Virus record (IMG/VR): IMGVR_UViG_648276661_000004
Coordinates: 1 to 11,064 of that record
Strand: one strand, 5' to 3'
Source of the DNA: a virus
Taxonomy: Duplodnaviria > Heunggongvirae > Uroviricota > Caudoviricetes
Length of the DNA stretch: 11,064 nt
A model generated the notes under the pieces. It was given only the letters and a program-made list of their open reading frames with translations, did no database searches and was not told the DNA's origin. The position numbers were made by a program, and so were the translations under genes. This document shows positions 4,981 through 11,064 of this stretch, piece after piece; position 1 is the first letter of the stretch, and every line of letters begins with the position of its first letter.

Positions 4981-5082
4981 AATCCCCCCTGTTGCGTCTG
5001 CTGAAAATATTCACAAAATAAAGCGCTACCCGAAGCCGGACGGACTTATCCGGTGCTGTATGGACATTAACGAGGTAGCCCG

Positions 5083-5349
5083 ATGCAAGCTGTTTTTTCT
5101 TCCCCGTCTCCTGCCCCTGTGACGCCACTGATGCCGCTGCCGGACATCACGCAGGAGCGTTTTTTACGTCTGCCGGAAGTGATGCACCTGTGCGGCCTGT
5201 CACGCTCGACCATCTACGAACTCATCCGTAAGGGGGAATTTCCGCCGCAGGTGAGTCTTGGCGGTAAAAATGTGGCCTGGCTGCACTCTGAAGTCACTGC
5301 ATGGATGGCCGGGCGCATCGCCGGACGCAAACGGGGGTACGACGCATGA
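5083..5349 (+). CDS. vis: Vis / AlpA-family DNA-binding regulator-excisionase (88 aa)
   Basis: Helix-turn-helix core [19 protein letters not shown] characteristic of the AlpA/Vis family. ATG at 5083 has GAGG 7 nt upstream. The 88-aa length and the position between the late promoter region and the immunity region match P4 vis. Confidence 0.8.
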
Positions 5350-5384
5350 TGATGCCTGTTCTGCAAAAACTCCCTTTTTCTGGC

Positions 5385-5414
5385 TTGCCTTTTTCCGGCA
5401 TTTGCGGATATAGT
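5385..5414 (+). promoter_or_regulatory. Sigma70-like promoter (TTGCCT - 18 bp - TATAGT), candidate PLE-type promoter for the immunity/early operon
   Basis: -35 TTGCCT at 5385-5390 and -10 TATAGT at 5409-5414 with an 18-bp spacer. It sits 36 bp after the vis stop and about 30 bp upstream of seqA. Confidence 0.5.
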
Positions 5415-5443
5415 TTTTCCGCTGCCGCAAAATCGGCAGCCGG

Positions 5444-5474
5444 GCGTGAGAACCCGAGCAATCTAACGGCGACA
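5444..5474 (+). promoter_or_regulatory. seqA-like antisense target (blocks GTGAGAA ... TCTAACGG complementary to the seqB-like segment at 5641-5663)
   Basis: GCGTGAGAACCCGAGCAATCTAACGGCGACA shares the two blocks GTGAGAA and (T)CTAACGG with seqC (5687-5730). Both blocks are complementary to CCGTTAGA...ATTCTCAC at 5641-5663. Confidence 0.45.
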
Positions 5475-5477
5475 TAT

Positions 5478-5499
5478 GACGCGCCATGCGTCTTTTTTT
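5478..5499 (+). terminator. Hairpin GACGC-GCCAT-GCGTC followed by TTTTTTT: candidate immunity (premature-termination) terminator just after seqA
   Basis: 5-bp GC-rich stem, 5-nt loop and a T7 run on the plus strand inside the operon leader. This fits the termination-based immunity mechanism of P4/P1-type antisense systems. Confidence 0.45.
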
Positions 5500-5589
5500 G
5501 TGTCGCAATCAACGCCACAGAGCGCCAGATTATGGTGTGGCGTGTGGTTTGCCGTGCAGGTATGATCCTGTTTGCAATCGCATGTTATG

Positions 5590-5670
5590 CCACTGAGTCA
5601 ATGGTAGCTCAGGCGGGGCAGCCTCCGGGCTGGCCGGTATCCGTTAGAGCCGGTATTCTCACCCCCGTCT
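5590..5670 (+). ncRNA. Candidate CI-like (C4-family) antisense immunity RNA containing the seqB-like segment; ends are approximate
   Basis: 5641-5663 (CCGTTAGAGCCGGTATTCTCACC) is complementary in two blocks to both seqA and seqC. It lies between the two targets as in P4. The exact 5' and 3' ends cannot be set from sequence alone. Confidence 0.3.
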
Positions 5671-5686
5671 GGGCTATCGCCATCGA

Positions 5687-5730
5687 GCGTGAGAACTCCG
5701 GCGATAGCGTAACCTGCTATCTAACGGAGG
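5687..5730 (+). promoter_or_regulatory. seqC-like antisense target overlapping the ribosome-binding site of the kil/icd-like gene
   Basis: GCGTGAGAACTCCGGCGATAGCGTAACCTGCTATCTAACGGAGG: the GTGAGAA block lies in the loop of a hairpin (GCTATCGCC 5672-5680 pairing with GGCGATAGC 5700-5708), and the CTAACGG block is fused to the GGAGG SD (5726-5730) of the downstream gene. Confidence 0.45.
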
Positions 5731-5738
5731 CTGCCATC

Positions 5739-5936
5739 ATGGCTACAACCCTTACCCCCTCACACCCTGAATTTGTCTTTGTGTTTGCGGCTGTCCGTCG
5801 CGCAGACCGTCATCCCCGTATCTGCATGCTTCGCACCGTCGCCGGTGATGAACGCAGCGCCCGCCGTTCCCTTGTCCGTGACTATGTGCTCTCCCTTGCT
5901 GCCCGTCTGCCGGTGGTGGAGGTGTCCCGTGCGTAA
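5739..5936 (+). CDS. kil: Kil / Icd-like host cell-division inhibitor (65 aa), first translated gene after the immunity RNA
   Basis: ATG at 5739 with GGAGG 8 nt upstream. The 65-aa product starts [26 protein letters not shown]. Position immediately downstream of seqC is as for P4 kil and P1 icd. The upstream part of the 211-aa track ORF (5301-5738) is regulatory and RNA sequence, not coding. Confidence 0.7.
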
Positions 5937-6216
5937 TAAAAAAGCCCCTCAGACCGTCTCAGCGCGTCATGACGCCCGTGAACACCTCAGCATTGAGGCT
6001 TACCATAAGCTCAACCGCGCCAGCGCCGTATCCCAGTTTGTTGGGGGTGATTTGATTCACCGTGAACTCTCCGGCCTGCATCAGCTCTACATTCCGCATA
6101 TTTTCAGCTACCTGAATGAAGATATTGATTTTGTGCTGAATGAGCTGAAAGCCAAAGGCCTGTGCCGCGATTTTCTCGCCCAGCAGAAAGACCGGGGAGA
6201 CAGGACGCATGTTTGA
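5929..6216 (+). CDS. Hypothetical protein (95 aa), GTG start overlapping the kil stop; corresponds by position to the eta/epsilon region of P4
   Basis: The frame has no in-frame ATG at all, so the start is non-ATG; GTG at 5929 overlaps the kil stop codon (GTGCGTAATAA). The stop overlaps the next gene start by 8 nt. Composition matches the backbone. Confidence 0.55.
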
Positions 6217-6664
6217 TTTTCCCCAGCCCGGTGAGATTTACCGTTCTGCCGGTTTTCCCGATGTGGCCGTGGTCGGCATTCTGGAAGACGGTATTCCGTG
6301 GGAAATGCCGTACCGCTGCCCGGACATTGTCTGGAATCCGTACCGCCGTAAATTCAGTATCCTTGTGCGTATCCTCGCCGACGGGCGCACCACAGACATC
6401 CCGCTGGGGCGTTTTCTGCGGGAATTTACCTGTGACCGTCCTGACCTGTTTAAACGCAGCCCCGTAAACCGGCATGCGGTACTGAAAGAAATGGCCGGAG
6501 ACCCGGAATTACAGAAATGGCGGGAGAAATATCTGGATATTTACCCACAGGACCCTGTTCCGGTCAGCCGGGCGGCACCGGTGGCGCGGGAATGGAGGGA
6601 AATTCCCCGCACGGAGTCTGACCCGGAAATCACCCCGGATAACAGTTACCGCAATTATCTGTAA
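6209..6664 (+). CDS. Hypothetical protein, 151 aa (P4 orf151-like by length and position)
   Basis: ATG at 6209 with GGGAGA 8 nt upstream; overlaps the previous ORF stop, suggesting translational coupling. The 151-aa length and position two genes upstream of alpha match my recollection of P4 orf151. Confidence 0.8.
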   Translation: MFDFPQPGEIYRSAGFPDVAVVGILEDGIPWEMPYRCPDIVWNPYRRKFSILVRILADGRTTDIPLGRFLREFTCDRPDLFKRSPVNRHAVLKEMAGDPELQKWREKYLDIYPQDPVPVSRAAPVAREWREIPRTESDPEITPDNSYRNYL

Positions 6665-6737
6665 TTAAAAAACGACACCCGAAAAATTAAATGTGCGTAT
6701 TCGCGCAGGGATACGCACGTCTTCAGGAGACGCAGAT

Positions 6738-6803
6738 ATGCCTTATCAGTTAATGCAACCGGCACGGAATGCAGTCATCTGTCACAGGGAGGAAAACAAA
6801 TGA
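6738..6803 (+). CDS. Candidate 21-codon upstream ORF ([21 protein letters not shown]) translationally coupled to the 106-aa ORF
   Basis: ATG at 6738 with AGGAG 8 nt upstream. Its stop TGA (6801-6803) overlaps the ATG (6800-6802) of the next gene. Not on the ORF track because it is too short. Confidence 0.25.
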
Positions 6804-7120
6804 AAACACCCTTACCGCCCGTCTTACGCGCTGCCCTTTACCGTCGCGCTGTCGCCTGTGCCTGGCTGACCGTGTGCGAACGTCAGCACCGCTACCCGCA
6901 TCTCACCCTTGAATCACTGGAGGCGGCCATCGCCGCTGAGCTGGAAGGCTTTTATCTGCGCCAGCACGGTGAGGAAAAAGGGCGTCAGATAGCCTGTGCC
7001 CTGCTGGAAGATTTAATGGAATCCGGCCCCCTGAAGGCCGCGCCGTCGCTGTCCTTTCTCGGGCTGGTTGTGATGGATGAACTCTGTGCCCGTCACATAA
7101 AAGCGCCGGTACTGCACTGA
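6800..7120 (+). CDS. Hypothetical protein, 106 aa (P4 orf106-like by length and position)
   Basis: ATG at 6800 with GGGAGG 7 nt upstream. Lies immediately upstream of alpha; 106 aa. Confidence 0.8.
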
Positions 7121-7134
7121 AGGAGAACAACACC

Positions 7135-9468
7135 ATGAAAATGAACGTAACCGCCACCGTCAGCCATGCGCTCGGCCACTGGCCGCGTATTCTCCCGGCG
7201 CTGGGGATTCAGGTGCTGAAAAACCGTCATCAGCCCTGTCCGGTCTGTGGCGGGAGTGACCGCTTCCGTTTTGATGACAGGGAGGGGCGCGGCACCTGGT
7301 ACTGCAATCAGTGTGGTGCCGGTGACGGCCTGAAACTGGTTGAAAAGGTGTTTGGTGTCTCCCCGTCCGACGCGGCCACAAAGGTGGCTGCCGTGACCGG
7401 CAGCCTGCCCCCGGCTGACCCGGCAGTGACGGCTGCCGCCGTTGCTGAAACAGACGCTGCCCGGAAGAACGCTGCCGCACTGGCACAAACCCTGATGGCA
7501 AAAACCCGTCCCGGAACCGGTAACGCCTACCTGACCCGCAAGGGCTTTCCCGGCCGGGAATGCCGGATGCTGACCGGCACACACAGAGCCGGTGGCGTGA
7601 GCTGGCGCGCCGGTGACCTTGTGGTGCCACTGTATGACGACAGCGGCGAACTGGTTAACCTTCAGTTAATCAGTGCTGACGGCCGTAAGCGCACCCTGAA
7701 AGGCGGACAGGTCAGGGGCACCTGTCACATCCTTGAAGGACAGAATCAGGCCGGAAAACGTCTGTGGATAGCGGAGGGATACGCGACCGCACTTACCGTG
7801 CATCACCTGACCGGTGAAACGGTGATGGTGGCGCTTTCTTCCGTGAATCTCCTTTCTCTGGCCAGCCTTGCCCGGCAGAAGCATCCGGCCTGTCAGATTG
7901 TCCTTGCCGCAGACCGTGACCTCAGCGGTGACGGCCAGAAAAAAGCCGCCGCAGCCGCAGATGCGTGTGAAGGTGTTGTTGCCCTGCCGCCGGTCTTCGG
8001 TGACTGGAATGATGCCTTCACGCAGTACGGCGGGGAAGCCACCCGTAAGGCCATTTATGATGCCATCCGGCCACCGGCTGAAAGCCCGTTCGACACCATG
8101 AGCGAAGCAGAGTTTTCCGCCATGAGTACCAGCGAAAAGGCCATGCGTATCTATGAGCATTACGGCGAGGCGCTCGCGGTCGATGCCAACGGCCAGCTTC
8201 TGTCCCGCTATGAAAATGGTGTCTGGAAGGTGCTGCCGCCACAGGACTTTGCCCGGGATGTGGCCGGGCTGTTTCAGCGTCTGCGCGCGCCGTTCTCCTC
8301 CGGGAAGGTGGCCTCCGTGGTGGACACCCTGAAGCTGATTATTCCGCAGCAGGAAGCCCCCTCCCGCCGCCTGATTGGCTTTCGTAACGGCGTGCTCGAC
8401 ACGCAGAACGGCACGTTCCACCCGCACAGTCCGTCACACTGGATGCGTACCCTGTGCGATGTGGATTTCACCCCGCCGGTGGAAGGGGAAACGCTGGAAA
8501 CCCACGCTCCCGCGTTCTGGCGCTGGCTTGACCGTGCCGCCGGTGGTCGTGCGGAAAAACGCGACGTGATTCTGGCCGCACTGTTTATGGTGCTGGCAAA
8601 CCGCTACGACTGGCAGCTCTTTCTGGAGGTGACCGGTCCCGGCGGCAGCGGCAAAAGTATCATGGCCGAAATCGCCACCCTGCTGGCCGGGGAGGATAAC
8701 GCCACGTCGGCCACCATCGAGACGCTGGAATCCCCGCGTGAACGTGCCGCGTTAACTGGCTTCTCACTGATACGCCTGCCGGACCAGGAAAAATGGAGCG
8801 GCGACGGTGCCGGACTCAAGGCCATCACTGGCGGCGATGCGGTGTCCGTTGACCCGAAATACCGGGATGCGTACTCCACGCACATCCCGGCGGTGATTCT
8901 GGCCGTGAACAATAACCCGATGCGCTTCACCGACCGCAGCGGCGGTGTGTCACGCCGGCGGGTGATTATTCACTTCCCGGAACAGATAGCCCCGCAGGAG
9001 CGCGACCCGCAGCTTAAGGACAAAATCACCCGCGAGCTGGCGGTCATCGTGCGTCACCTGATGCAGAAATTCAGCGACCCGATGCTCGCCCGGTCACTGC
9101 TTCAGTCCCAGCAGAACTCAGACGAGGCACTGAACATCAAACGGGATGCCGACCCGACGTTTGATTTTATCGGCTATCTGGAAACCCTGCCGCAGACCAG
9201 CGGCATGTATATGGGGAACGCCAGTATCATCCCGCGTAATTACCGTAAATACCTCTATCACGCCTATCTGGCCTACATGGAGGCAAACGGCTACCGGAAT
9301 GTACTCAGTCTGAAAATGTTCGGGCTGGGGCTGCCGGTGATGCTGAAGGAATACGGACTGAATTACGAGAAGCGCCATACCAAACAGGGGATACAGACCA
9401 ACCTGACGCTGAAAGAGGAAAGCTACGGCGACTGGCTGCCAAAATGTGACGACCCTGCGACAACCTGA
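7135..9468 (+). CDS. alpha: Alpha replication protein: primase-helicase with C-terminal origin-binding domain (777 aa)
   Basis: N-terminal zinc motif CPVCGGSD...YCNQCG (primase type), a Toprim-like region, Walker A GPGGSGKS, and a 777-aa length equal to P4 alpha. AGGAG 9 nt upstream of the ATG. TGTTCACC iteron clusters on both sides are its expected binding sites. Confidence 0.95.
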   Translation: MKMNVTATVSHALGHWPRILPALGIQVLKNRHQPCPVCGGSDRFRFDDREGRGTWYCNQCGAGDGLKLVEKVFGVSPSDAATKVAAVTGSLPPADPAVTAAAVAETDAARKNAAALAQTLMAKTRPGTGNAYLTRKGFPGRECRMLTGTHRAGGVSWRAGDLVVPLYDDSGELVNLQLISADGRKRTLKGGQVRGTCHILEGQNQAGKRLWIAEGYATALTVHHLTGETVMVALSSVNLLSLASLARQKHPACQIVLAADRDLSGDGQKKAAAAADACEGVVALPPVFGDWNDAFTQYGGEATRKAIYDAIRPPAESPFDTMSEAEFSAMSTSEKAMRIYEHYGEALAVDANGQLLSRYENGVWKVLPPQDFARDVAGLFQRLRAPFSSGKVASVVDTLKLIIPQQEAPSRRLIGFRNGVLDTQNGTFHPHSPSHWMRTLCDVDFTPPVEGETLETHAPAFWRWLDRAAGGRAEKRDVILAALFMVLANRYDWQLFLEVTGPGGSGKSIMAEIATLLAGEDNATSATIETLESPRERAALTGFSLIRLPDQEKWSGDGAGLKAITGGDAVSVDPKYRDAYSTHIPAVILAVNNNPMRFTDRSGGVSRRRVIIHFPEQIAPQERDPQLKDKITRELAVIVRHLMQKFSDPMLARSLLQSQQNSDEALNIKRDADPTFDFIGYLETLPQTSGMYMGNASIIPRNYRKYLYHAYLAYMEANGYRNVLSLKMFGLGLPVMLKEYGLNYEKRHTKQGIQTNLTLKEESYGDWLPKCDDPATT

Positions 9469-9830: not shown

Positions 9831-10026
9831 TTAACGTGCGTGAAGATACGTGTAAAAATTAATCGATAGATATTATATGTATAAGGATGTGTATAAATGA
9901 ATTATAATAGAAAAATATAAACGATTTGAATCAAATGGTTATATGGCAATTTTGACTCCTGTGATCTTCCGCCAAAATGCCTCTCCTGAACTCTCCCGAC
10001 GTCAACAACACTCCTTCGGAGGCGAC

Positions 10027-11064
10027 ATGTCAGACAAAGACTTAACCCAGCCCCCAGCAGGCGAGTTTATTATGTTTGCCAGCGGTGACGGAAGAGTGCG
10101 TGTTGAATGTCGCTTTGAGTCAGACACAATCTGGTTATCCCAGGCGGCAATGGCTGAACTGTACGATAAAGATGTTCGCACTATTAACGAACATTTAATC
10201 AATATATTTTCCGAAGGTGAACTTGTTCAAAACTCAACCATCCGGAAATTCCGGATAGTTCGCCAGGAAGGAAAACGTCAGGTTTCCAGAGAGATAGACC
10301 ATTACAACCTCGAAGCCATTCTCGCTGTCGGCTATCGCGTTCGCTCGCCTCGAGGCACGCAATTCCGCCAGTGGGCAACGCAGACGCTTCAGGAATACCT
10401 GATCAAAGGTTTTGTGATGGACGATGAGCGGCTGAAGAATCCGCCTGTCGGTTCATCGGTTGTGCCCGACTATTTTGATGAGATGCTTGAACGCATCCGC
10501 GATATTCGCGCCAGCGAGCGTCGGGTATATTTGCGGGTGCGGGAGATCTTTGCTTTAGCTGCCGACTATCAGCCATCGCTTAAAGAAACCACGCAATTTT
10601 TTCAAACCATCCAGAATAAACTGCATTTTGCCTGTACCGGGCATACCGCTGCGGAACTCATCCACAAACGAGCAGATGCCAGCCAGCCGCACATGGGCTT
10701 GACCAGTTATAAAGGTGAAGAGGTACGTAAGGGCGACGTGACGGTGGCAAAAAATTATCTCACCCAGGATGAGGTCAGCGAACTTAATCGCGTGGTTAAT
10801 ATGTGGCTGGACTTTGCCGAGGATCAGGCCCGTCGTCGTCAGCAAGTCTTTTTGCGCGACTGGCAGGATAAGCTGGATCAGTTCCTGCAATTTAACGACC
10901 GAGAGGTTCTACAGGGCGCTGGTAAAATCAGCAAGAAAATGGCCGATGAAAAAGCGCAGGCGGAGTATGTTCAGTTTGCCGAACAACAACGGCGCTTAAA
11001 AGAAGCCGAAGGCGAGAAGGATATCGCTGGTTTGCTACAGTGGAATAAAGAGTCGAAAAAGTAG
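10027..11064 (+). CDS. RhuM-family protein (virulence protein RhuM-like), about 345 aa
   Basis: Conserved RhuM-type N-terminal region (RVECRFESDTIWLSQAAMAELYDKDVRTINEHL ... AVGYRVRSPRGTQFRQWATQTLQEYLIKGFVMDDERLK). Start chosen at ATG 10027 with GGAGG 4 nt upstream; the track ORF begins earlier at 9943 without an SD. Stop TAG is at the window end. Confidence 0.8.
   Translation: MSDKDLTQPPAGEFIMFASGDGRVRVECRFESDTIWLSQAAMAELYDKDVRTINEHLINIFSEGELVQNSTIRKFRIVRQEGKRQVSREIDHYNLEAILAVGYRVRSPRGTQFRQWATQTLQEYLIKGFVMDDERLKNPPVGSSVVPDYFDEMLERIRDIRASERRVYLRVREIFALAADYQPSLKETTQFFQTIQNKLHFACTGHTAAELIHKRADASQPHMGLTSYKGEEVRKGDVTVAKNYLTQDEVSELNRVVNMWLDFAEDQARRRQQVFLRDWQDKLDQFLQFNDREVLQGAGKISKKMADEKAQAEYVQFAEQQRRLKEAEGEKDIAGLLQWNKESKK

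Follow-up and report, generated by a model that had tools for sequence, protein, structure and literature searches.

A P4-type immunity region and its variable recognition blocks in a satellite prophage of Escherichia coli

Antisense-RNA immunity in P4 and other prophages

The immunity region of phage P4, as worked out in the Deho/Ghisotti laboratory, comprises a CI RNA, the sequences seqA, seqB and seqC, the terminator t1, and the kil gene nested in eta; the CI RNA acts in trans, and t1, t4, timm, RNase P and PNPase all have roles in the system. In P4 and in P1, the 5′ end of an RNA of the CI type is produced by RNase P and the 3′ end by exonucleases. Phages P1 and P7 have a c4 antisense RNA, with a1/b1 and a2/b2 targets and icd-ant, that was reportedly described by Citron & Schuster in 1990, and an anti-immunity RNA of the N15 group is said to have been reported by Ravin et al. 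in 1999. The retronphage phiR73, a P4-like element with an immunity specificity of its own, reportedly as found by Sabbattini et al. in 1996, is integrated at selC and is heteroimmune to P4, its specificity being determined by the sequences of CI and of the targets.

In P4, the CI RNA is a processed RNA factor (PMC4825925), and its pairing, through premature termination and a translational block, gives superinfection immunity (PMC4825925, PMC3632133, PMC10111431). A target needed for establishing this immunity appears to be seqA, according to the P4 genetics summarised in PMC3632133, and the literature on eta is summarised in PMC10111431. In Salmonella Gifsy-1, IsrK is followed downstream by a processed RNA that is CI-like (PMC4825925).

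The window, that is, the whole stretch of 11,064 nucleotides analysed here, is a P4-type satellite prophage at the tRNA-Sec site of E. coli, in which the P4 gene set is present in P4 order (int, psu, delta, sid, ORF88, eta/kil, epsilon, orf151, orf106, alpha), as judged from the RefSeq annotation of an identical prophage in E. coli strain F11, the P4 annotation and Pfam. The region described below is considered to be the immunity region of this prophage, most likely with a P4-like mode of action (probability about 0.9). The genes concerned are the following.

5083–5349, + strand: ORF88, a vis/AlpA-type regulator (Pfam Phage_AlpA, 7.3e-21; orthologue of P4 ORF88)
5346–5936, + strand: eta, 196 codons, spanning the promoter-like site, leader RNA, CI RNA and kil
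5739–5936, + strand: kil, 65 codons, in frame with eta and nested inside it
5929–9468, + strand: the putatively controlled operon of epsilon, orf151, orf106 and alpha (Pfam Derepression, DUF5375 and primase-helicase)
5929–6216, + strand: epsilon
6209–6664, + strand: orf151
6800–7120, + strand: orf106
7135–9468, + strand: alpha primase-helicase

Alignment to the P4 immunity region, one of the checks proposed in a first-pass annotation made from the sequence alone, identifies an orthologue with 95.6% identity over 1.3 kb. Both elements have the order promoter, leader, terminator, CI, second target, kil, epsilon, orf151, orf106 and alpha, the operon part of which also matches the RefSeq annotation, and they agree in the a block, in all scaffold helices, in the 65-codon kil and in the 196-codon eta; they differ in the tRNA-Sec site, in the cargo genes, and in the spacer between terminator and CI RNA, which is 9 nt shorter here.

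Like phiR73, the prophage is found at tRNA-Sec and differs from P4 in a recognition block, whereas phiR73 is a retronphage and no retron was seen in the window. The P1/P7 c4 system shares with it the RNA family, as assigned by covariance model, the two-block logic and a second target at the ribosome-binding site of an Icd-like gene, and the P1-like phages D6, RCS47 and JL22 align to 5598–5778 with 72–74% identity; P1 c4, however, controls an antirepressor in a plasmid prophage, whereas replication genes of a satellite are concerned here, and the eta read-through frame is a P4-type feature, unlike P1. The N15 group likewise has a small processed RNA controlling downstream genes, and the N15-like phiKO2 and PY54 align to the CI part with 77% identity (phiKO2 also to the leader), but the element of that group is a linear plasmid prophage, in which the RNA controls an antirepressor locus.

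Leader, CI RNA and the two target sites

The RNA features of the region are listed here from the promoter-like site to the kil ribosome-binding site.

5385–5414, + strand: promoter-like site (−35 TTGCCT, 18-nt spacer, −10 TATAGT; 9 of 12 consensus positions match)
5421–5499, + strand: leader RNA (seqA region in P4; IsrK-like in Rfam), from the Rfam isrK and c4-a1b1 models
5421–5440, + strand: leader hairpin 1
5441–5456, + strand: leader hairpin 2 (4-bp stem, 5441–5444/5453–5456), block a1 GTGAGAA (5446–5452) in its loop
5462–5469, + strand: block b1 TCTAACGG, single-stranded
5478–5499, + strand: intrinsic terminator (P4's t1) from the terminator scan, stem 5478–5492 (6 pairs, 3-nt loop) and T7 at 5493–5499
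5500–5596, + strand: variable spacer from terminator to CI RNA, about 45 nt shorter in a distant clade
5597–5684, + strand: CI RNA (Rfam C4 family), from the C4 model, the fold and the relatives
5602–5618/5663–5679, + strand: CI closing stem, 17 bp
5619–5632, + strand: CI hairpin 1
5633–5654, + strand: CI hairpin 2, whose 12-nt loop (5638–5649) carries block b′ UCCGUUAGA (5640–5648)
5655–5662, + strand: CI single-stranded junction with block a′ UUCUCAC (5656–5662)
5673–5708, + strand: hairpin presenting the second a target, 9-bp stem 5673–5681/5700–5708
5720–5730, + strand: block b2 TCTAACGGA (5720–5728) and the kil Shine-Dalgarno GGAGG (5726–5730)

In the whole window, GTGAGAA occurs on the + strand only at 5446 and 5689 and CTAACGG only at 5463 and 5721, which are the two target sites to which the first-pass annotation had assigned these blocks; the internal segment that it had taken for their two-block complement is formed by CCGTTAG at 5641 and TTCTCAC at 5656, the latter having one further, unrelated copy at 8761. 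Both blocks of the RNA gene are complementary to one site upstream and one downstream of it, in the same order. The gapped pattern GTGAGAA-N(5-30)-CTAACGG has three matches in the window (5446–5469 and 5689–5727 on the + strand, 5641–5662 on the − strand), and none of 200 dinucleotide-preserving shuffles contained one (mean 0.00). Generic 7-mer triplets of the type X...rc(X)...X number 46 in the window versus 2.9 in shuffles, a count inflated by overlapping stem words.

Three Rfam covariance models, lying in the order expected, score above their gathering thresholds: isrK (RF01394) with 72.0 bits against 50 at 5421–5498, c4-a1b1 (RF03163) with 49.5 bits against 46.7 at 5408–5460, and C4 (RF01695) with 74.5 bits against 45 (E = 1.8e-13) over its full length, 1–87, at 5597–5684. 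The search with the C4 family that had been proposed as a check was thus positive, and these families, together with the orthology to P4, bear out the architecture of P4 CI and P1 C4 that had been recognised by eye. The isrK model begins at 5421, 7 nt downstream of the promoter-like site, whose position matches that of the constitutive PLE of P4 and whose −10 is kept as TATAGT or TACAGT among relatives. The hairpin and T7 terminator anticipated after the first target are found at 5478–5499, where the stem coincides with the terminator stem of the isrK model. The minimum-energy fold of the leader equals the Rfam consensus; its helices are 98.7–100% paired in 91 sequences, with compensatory pairs present, and the terminator is 98.7% paired in relatives. 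The leader alone folds no better than shuffles (z = −1.37), and its helices are supported by covariation. The first block of the first target also lies in a hairpin loop, closed by the 4-bp stem. A candidate antiterminator, in which GGCGUG (5443–5448) would pair with CGCGCC (5481–5486) and be disrupted by CI, was rejected, GGCG being missing, by eye, in some a types such as UUUGCAG.

The CI RNA folds with −48.1 kcal/mol (z = −4.76), the minimum-energy structure containing both hairpins within the closing stem and leaving the a′ junction unpaired, with a few extra pairs inside the b′ loop; an invariant CC follows the stem at 5680–5681. Across the 91 sequences, the helices are 99.9–100% paired, and the scaffold is invariant, only the loop and the junction being hypervariable. 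In the unprocessed segment 5597–5745, by comparison, the minimum-energy fold (−74.7 kcal/mol, z = −4.70) joins CI to the second target intramolecularly, a′ to a2 and b′ to b2, as would be expected if CI acted only in cis, folding back on its own downstream target, so that the kil ribosome-binding site would be hidden and neither a diffusible RNA nor superinfection immunity would result. This explanation is very improbable, since conservation and covariation mark out the CI stem and its two hairpins as a tRNA-like domain of their own, followed by the invariant CC, which is sensible only for an excised RNA; the upstream target covaries too; evolution of the blocks is 10.7 times faster than that of the backbone, as expected from discrimination between elements in trans; and the CI RNA of P4 is a processed factor (PMC4825925). 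The tRNA-like domain is more probably excised as a stable CI RNA of about 80 nt, as in a P4-like mode of action, and its action may be divided between cis and trans.

At the second target, the predicted 9-bp hairpin with the first block in its loop is present; block a2 GTGAGAA (5689–5695) sits in an 18-nt loop, the structure has −17.2 kcal/mol (z = −3.47), and the stem is 99.3% paired over the 91 relatives, with three pairs changed on both sides, the switches being from U-A to C-G and from G-C to A-U in a ratio of about 46:45. Since its 5′ arm and the base of the CI stem consist of the same nucleotides, the two structures are mutually exclusive. The first-pass annotation had described this target as fused to the kil ribosome-binding site; the overlap stands, CTAACGG (5721–5727) sharing 2 nt with GGAGG and the extended 9-nt duplex of b2 sharing 3 nt, whereas the kil start had to be corrected, its ATG occupying 5739–5741 and not 5740. 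In 89 of the 91 relatives, the GGA of the Shine-Dalgarno sequence forms the end of the b2 9-mer, which lies 9–10 nt upstream of the ATG.

The product of kil is a Kil homologue with an Icd-like domain, encoded by 64–66 codons in 109 of the 111 relatives measured, and kil is the first gene translatable on transcripts of the internal promoter. The longer frame, eta, can be translated only from transcripts of an upstream promoter, and its ATG (5346–5348) overlaps the TGA of ORF88 (5347–5349) in an ATGA. This frame has no stops, versus seven in each other frame, and is kept open in 0.6% of shuffled sequences; it is open in 108 of 112 non-redundant relatives, and in the alignment every 1-nt deletion is accompanied by a 2-nt deletion restoring the frame. 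Eta matches Pfam Phage_ASH at amino acids 22–143 and the NCBIfam Icd-like model (NF033153) at amino acids 143–190, which correspond to amino acids 12–59 of Kil.

Covariation of the blocks and probable mode of action

Pairing is under selection at both target sites. Hypervariability of both blocks is evident in a covariation set of 91 non-redundant relatives, which has 6 a types and 12 b cores in 32 combinations; changes in the CI RNA are matched at both targets, with 99.5–100% of the cells paired and most pairs changed on both sides. Complementarity lost in relatives without compensation had been named as evidence that would speak against the module; the opposite was observed, with massive compensatory change at all three sites. 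In the 91 leaders, the seqA:CI duplexes are 99.5% paired and 12 of 15 pairs are changed on both sides, with a covariation score of 0.775 versus at most 0.164 for slid controls, and pairing of a′ with a2 reaches 100%, 6 of their 7 pairs having changed on both sides, with a score of 0.661. For b′:b2, pairing was counted by the best local match beside the Shine-Dalgarno sequence, the MAFFT columns being shifted by one in one clade; the duplex is entirely Watson-Crick in 58 relatives, contains G·U as its only deviation in 16, has one mismatch in 16 (at the terminal pair in 11) and is degenerate in 1. A fit of at least 7 nt to both targets is seen in 87.5% of cognate and 3.5% of non-cognate b pairs, the corresponding values for a in the same matching test being 100% and 0%. 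The exceptions are L110 and L122, with a non-cognate first target, and L082, with a degenerate second target.

Duplexes deviating by G·U only are also found for b1:b′, in 27 leaders; because such G·U-compatible substitutions are tolerated, pairing takes place at the RNA rather than the DNA level. This bears on the proposal that the repeats are not RNA signals at all, being instead peptide motifs of Eta or DNA operators of a protein repressor, for which it may be argued that both GTGAGAA copies encode Arg-Glu-Asn in the eta frame, that the whole region is an open, conserved frame matching Phage_ASH, and that old P4 records annotate a 137-aa 'cI' repressor there. The proposal is hardly credible: DNA operators would not tolerate the G·U-type (G:T) changes of these 27 b1:b′ and 16 b′:b2 duplexes, a peptide repeat leaves unexplained why a reverse-complement copy changes in step with two direct copies, and the structure-scoring covariance models are all above threshold.

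Work on P4, P1 and N15, from which promoter activity, processing, termination and immunity itself are inferred, suggests the following course of events. A constitutive promoter (about 5385–5414) would initiate transcription near 5421, and read-through past the first terminator would produce the tRNA-like domain of about 80 nt (5602–5682), to be cut out as a stable CI RNA whose hairpin-loop block b′ and neighbouring single-stranded block a′ would be exposed to their partners a1/b1 (5446–5469) and a2/b2 (5689–5728). Pairing at the first site would promote a stop at the terminator at 5478–5499, so that CI would limit its own synthesis; pairing at the second site would cover the start of the kil ribosome-binding site and leave kil untranslated, and the untranslated RNA would be terminated, turning off the replication genes epsilon and alpha. 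A superinfecting element with the same specificity would be silenced likewise. Transcripts from the upstream promoter would escape this control, ribosomes that finish ORF88 restarting at the overlapping eta start and then translating through the whole leader.

The role of the first site may also be seen differently, given the similarity of the leader, with 72 bits in the isrK model, to IsrK of the IsrK/STnc1160 locus of Salmonella Gifsy-1. The site might be mainly a trans regulator, an IsrK-like RNA of about 78 nt (5421–5499) that pairs either with free CI or with the CI-like part of a longer transcript and so opens the downstream ribosome-binding site or soaks up CI, opposing immunity. We regard this as rather unlikely, though compatible with the P4-like mode of action. 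In Gifsy-1, to which the description of trans activation and Hfq binding is confined, the IsrK small RNA binds the long transcript, whereby translation of the following ORF is activated, and P4 seqA is called a structural homologue by the authors (PMC4825925); transposon screens in S. Typhi showed the IsrK-like sequences found in P4-like prophages to be required (PMC3632133); and every terminated leader carries a perfect CI binding site. The genetics of P4, on the other hand, indicate that seqA is a target for establishing immunity (PMC3632133), and L110 and L122, with their non-cognate seqA, point to a role that is inessential for persistence, the first site being dispensable in some elements. 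The contexts also differ, the short RNA of Gifsy-1 activating orf45-anrP translation (PMC4825925), whereas the downstream gene here is kil and the operon has replication functions.

Predicted immunity specificity and distribution of the module

With regard to specificity, the b block reads CTAACGG/CCGTTAG here and TCACAGG/CCTGTGA in P4, four of seven positions differing at all three sites; 12 of the 37 leader substitutions relative to P4 are thus four mutually compensating changes at each of three b sites. Co-immunity with P4 corresponds to identical a and b blocks, and here the a block is the same and the b block differs, so that the prophage is predicted to be not fully co-immune with P4 and to have an immunity specificity other than P4's. 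The leader of L110, which has the b1 of the present element, shows three mismatches in eight positions against a P4-type b′.

At the population level, it may tentatively be proposed, as a possibility somewhat less probable than its negation, that P4-like satellites carry a two-part RNA immunity barcode of at least 6 a types and 12 b cores, diversifying about ten times faster than the flanking sequence and reassorting despite the interleaved sites by a dedicated route for coordinated triple-site change and driven by competition between co-resident satellites; no earlier description of such a picture was found in a limited literature search. Since the six sites alternate along the region (a1 b1 ... 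b′ a′ ... a2 b2), no single crossover swaps one block type at all three places; candidate routes include a switch of template between an inverted and a direct copy, and short-patch conversion acting repeatedly. If the barcode proposal is correct, L110 and L122 would be intermediates, or variants in which CI synthesis is no longer self-limited.

The system is of a kind already known, a classic antisense-RNA switch with all its parts already in Rfam, to which the catalogue of reassorting specificity blocks and of natural recombinants is a modest addition. In current annotation, RefSeq labels the stretch only as 'Icd-like protein', with no RNA gene, the P4 reference record still carries the 137-aa 'cI repressor', and Pfam Phage_ASH is largely built on RNA-constrained sequence. 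The specificity blocks may predict mutual exclusion among P4-like satellites. A related module is present in 2,821 of 5,426 complete E. coli genomes (about half), and the cargo genes of this prophage match the PADLOC candidates PDC-M18A/B; since the module is common in E. coli and the satellites carry anti-phage cargo, a table of immunity types could help to predict their coexistence and spread. The order of an isrK-like followed by a C4-like element was kept in 20 of 20 diverse loci tested, from many Enterobacterales genera.

Elements of the immunity module

The claim that two target sites share two blocks, with a single internal segment complementary to both, is confirmed: the copies of GTGAGAA at 5446 and of CTAACGG at 5463 form the upstream target in the leader (a1/b1), those at 5689 and 5721 form the downstream target ahead of kil (a2/b2), and the complements of the two blocks, CCGTTAG at 5641 (b') and TTCTCAC at 5656 (a'), lie in the CI RNA, a small RNA of the C4 family. 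The gapped two-block pattern has three matches in the window, two on the plus and one on the minus strand, and none in 200 dinucleotide-preserving shuffles. The terminator noticed after the first target is likewise present, as a 6-pair stem (5478-5492) followed by seven T (5493-5499), as is the 9-bp hairpin (5673-5681 / 5700-5708; -17.2 kcal/mol, z = -3.47) carrying GTGAGAA in its loop. The covariance-model search that the first-pass annotation had proposed returned a C4 antisense RNA above the curated Rfam threshold, and the alignment to the P4 immunity region matched 5000-6300 to P4 7804-9113 at 95.6% identity. The system, that of P4 immunity, is already known and belongs to the Rfam C4 clan; published work identifies seqA and the CI RNA of P4 with the IsrK-like and C4-like RNAs of P4-type prophages (PMC3632133; PMC4825925).

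Features of the module and its coding layer (window coordinates; A2 is the alignment of 91 non-redundant leaders)
5346-5936 (also L001 2030-2446): annotation gap
TTGCCT, 18 nt, TATAGT, ending at 5414: promoter-like site directly 5' of the isrK match
5408-5460: c4-a1b1, the a1/b1 target motif (Rfam 49.5 bits, threshold 46.7)
5421-5498: isrK (Rfam 72 bits, threshold 50)
5597-5684: C4 antisense RNA (Rfam 74.5 bits, threshold 45)
5446-5469, 5640-5662, 5689-5728: block sites (A2 columns 97-120, 301-322, 349-397)
5655 and about 5683: paired deletions in relatives (A2 columns 315 and 343-346)
5726-5730: kil Shine-Dalgarno GGAGG

The second target had also been described as fused to the kil ribosome-binding site; the overlap stands, the extended downstream duplex TCTAACGGA (5720-5728) covering the first three bases of the Shine-Dalgarno sequence; as a small correction, the ATG of kil is at 5739-5741. 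The promoter-like site lies at the place expected for the constitutive promoter internal to eta (PMC10111431).

Pairing, covariation and fold among relatives

A total of 139 loci was gathered with an Eta/Kil protein probe: IMG/VR supplied 80, and the other 59 came from contigs representing Enterobacterales by one genome per species; because the probe was a protein, the sampling is independent of the RNA. An isrK-like element followed by a C4-like element was found in 20/20 diverse loci scanned with Rfam, and among relatives the CI scaffold is almost invariant, the loop and junction being hypervariable. Among the 91 leaders of A2, a':a2 pairs perfectly without exception and a1:a' does so in 90; for b1:b', 61 leaders are fully Watson-Crick and 27 depart by G·U only, and for b':b2 the Watson-Crick and G·U-only leaders number 58 and 16, with a further 16 carrying one mismatch, at the terminal pair in 11 of them. 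At the upstream site 99.5% of pairs are formed, 12 of 15 have changed on both sides and the covariation score is 0.775 (at most 0.164 in slid controls); for a':a2 the values are 100%, 6 of 7 and 0.661. Matches to both targets of at least 7 nt are made by 87.5% of cognate and 3.5% of non-cognate b loops, and by 100% and 0%, respectively, of a loops. Complementarity is thus not lost among relatives without compensation; firmly the opposite is found, the targets covarying with the CI RNA, and this pairing and covariation firmly favour, and support, the antisense-immunity interpretation. The tolerance of G·U pairs points to RNA-RNA pairing and not to DNA sites or peptide repeats; readings of the repeats as Eta peptide repeats or DNA operators fail, given the reverse-complement covariation together with the G·U pattern.

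The CI domain alone folds at -48.1 kcal/mol (z = -4.76) and exposes b' in the 12-nt loop of its second hairpin (5638-5649), a' lying in the single-stranded junction (5655-5662). On the target side, a1 and a2 occupy hairpin loops that meet the CI junction, and b1 and b2 are single-stranded and meet the b' loop, so that in each duplex a loop pairs with a single strand. A purely cis mechanism, in which the CI segment pairs with the target on its own transcript, is suggested by the minimum-free-energy fold of 5597-5745, but the tRNA-like CI domain is conserved and folds separately, and the specificity blocks diversify 10.7 times faster than the backbone, both of which argue against a purely cis mechanism. 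The leader RNA may in addition act in trans as an activator or CI sponge, by analogy with IsrK of Gifsy-1, which does act in trans (PMC4825925); such a role would be compatible with antisense immunity.

In relatives, the two leader hairpins, the terminator, and the 17-bp CI stem with its two hairpins are 98.7-100% paired, with compensatory pairs. For the 9-bp hairpin presenting a2 the figure is 99.3%, two positions showing full U-A to C-G and G-C to A-U switches, and on this comparative evidence the hairpin is real. The base of the CI stem (5673-5679; stem 5602-5618 / 5663-5679) shares its nucleotides with the 5' arm of this hairpin (5673-5681), and substitutions in the arm are absorbed in the CI stem by wobble (U·G to U-A, G·U to G-C). 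Since the switches are Watson-Crick in the hairpin and wobble-absorbed in the stem, the two mutually exclusive conformations both appear to be under selection, and a switch between them could link CI excision to a2 exposure.

The eta/kil coding layer and a proposed mechanism

The eta frame (5346-5936) runs through the promoter, leader, CI RNA and kil without a stop, whereas the other two frames have seven each; shuffled sequence keeps it open 0.6% of the time. Its ATG overlaps the ORF88 stop (ATGA, 5346-5349), and kil lies inside it, in frame. Of 112 non-redundant relatives, 108 keep this frame open, and in 109 of the 111 measured kil has 64-66 codons. In about 10 relatives the a' junction has lost 1 nt, and in every one of them a 2-nt deletion about 28 nt downstream restores the eta frame. 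This coding layer agrees with the published arrangement, in which only an upstream late promoter allows Eta to be translated, Eta is coupled to the AlpA homologue, and its translation prevents termination (PMC10111431). In RefSeq the eta frame appears as 'host cell division inhibitor Icd-like protein', and no RNA gene is annotated there; the P4 reference record still places a CDS for a 137-aa 'cI transcriptional repressor' over the RNA gene, and Pfam Phage_ASH covers Eta residues 22-143, that is, the RNA-constrained stretch 5409-5774.

From knowledge of P4, P1 and N15, and with the parts, their folds and the orthology to P4 established here, the internal promoter would transcribe constitutively and RNase P would excise CI, followed by 3' trimming. 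Acting on targets at both of which selection for pairing is demonstrated, CI would enhance termination at the intrinsic terminator past the first target, and at the second, which overlaps the kil ribosome-binding site, kil translation would be blocked, with subsequent termination ahead of epsilon and alpha. Translation of eta from the upstream promoter, through a read-through frame whose conservation is documented here, would provide escape from this control. Such CI-enhanced termination at the first terminator is the autoregulation that Briani et al. in 2000 reportedly attributed to t1.

Specificity blocks and the prophage

Between 5421 and 5741 the window differs from P4 by 37 substitutions; 12 of them fall in the b sites, four apiece in b1, b' and b2, and compensate exactly. 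The b block is TCACAGG / CCTGTGA in P4 and CTAACGG / CCGTTAG in the window, whereas the two do not differ in the a block or in any scaffold helix; the window copy is thus an orthologue of P4, specifically an allele whose b block differs, and partial or full heteroimmunity between the two is predicted by analogy. Heteroimmunity was reportedly described for P4 and phiR73 by Sabbattini et al. in 1996, and for P1 and P7, it is said, by Citron and Schuster in 1990. Phage phiR73, like the present prophage, integrates at selC.

The value added here is comparative, and comprises a strong data set on covariation at three sites, evidence that specificity blocks reassort, natural recombinants in which the first target is foreign, and the dual constraint on the CI stem base. 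Six a types and 17 b' 9-mers, reducing to 12 cores, occur in 32 a/b combinations, despite the interleaving of the six sites (a1 b1 ... b' a' ... a2 b2), by which one crossover is unable to exchange a block type at all three places. In the recombinant relatives L110 and L122 (both 1262-1609), the upstream target mismatches the locus's own CI RNA and the downstream target matches; a1 and b1 are both foreign in L110, and in L122 b1 is of P4 type, with CI and b2 of another type, so that in both the first terminator should no longer receive CI-enhanced termination. The relative with the backbone closest to the window (L082:1253-1600, 2.2% divergence) combines a unique b' loop with a one-mismatch b1 and a b2 broken by a 2-nt deletion, and may be immunity-defective or decaying. 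The GTGAGAA plus CTAACGG specificity is found on two backbones, with the window spacer (5500-5596) and with a P4-type spacer carrying a 9-nt insertion (L088, L091), which, from sequence comparison, is consistent with recombination inside the spacer.

The window, 11,064 nt long, is identical to a prophage carried by many genomes of uropathogenic E. coli, F11, BH100 and MS 200-1 among them. In F11 the prophage adjoins tRNA-Sec, between yicJ and yicL, and encodes an integrase, two hypothetical genes, psu, delta, sid, an AlpA-type regulator, the 'Icd-like' gene, epsilon, orf151, DUF5375, a 777-aa primase-helicase and a RhuM-family gene; gene set and order are those of satellite phage P4. In strain FDAARGOS_1256 (NZ_CP069451.1), an IS66-family insertion splits an otherwise identical prophage into two pieces. 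The interval between integrase and psu is a variable hotspot of P4-like satellites, and here holds two adjacent cargo genes (737-1270 and 1271-2431, both on the minus strand) in which no Pfam domain was found and which match the PADLOC candidate defence pair PDC-M18B (3.4e-16) and PDC-M18A (2.3e-34). The RhuM-family gene, 3' of alpha (9943-11064, plus strand) and truncated at the end of the window, has matches to Pfam Virulence_RhuM (5.6e-118) and to PADLOC candidate PDC-S05 (3.4e-173). Among 5,426 complete E. coli genomes, 2,821 have matches to 5380-5760, in up to five places per genome, and copies at 99% identity or above are confined to 38 records; 1,211 of the places are plasmid-borne, and those sampled match the CI part only, bear the annotation 'ash family protein' and may belong to plasmid prophages of P1-like or N15-like type.
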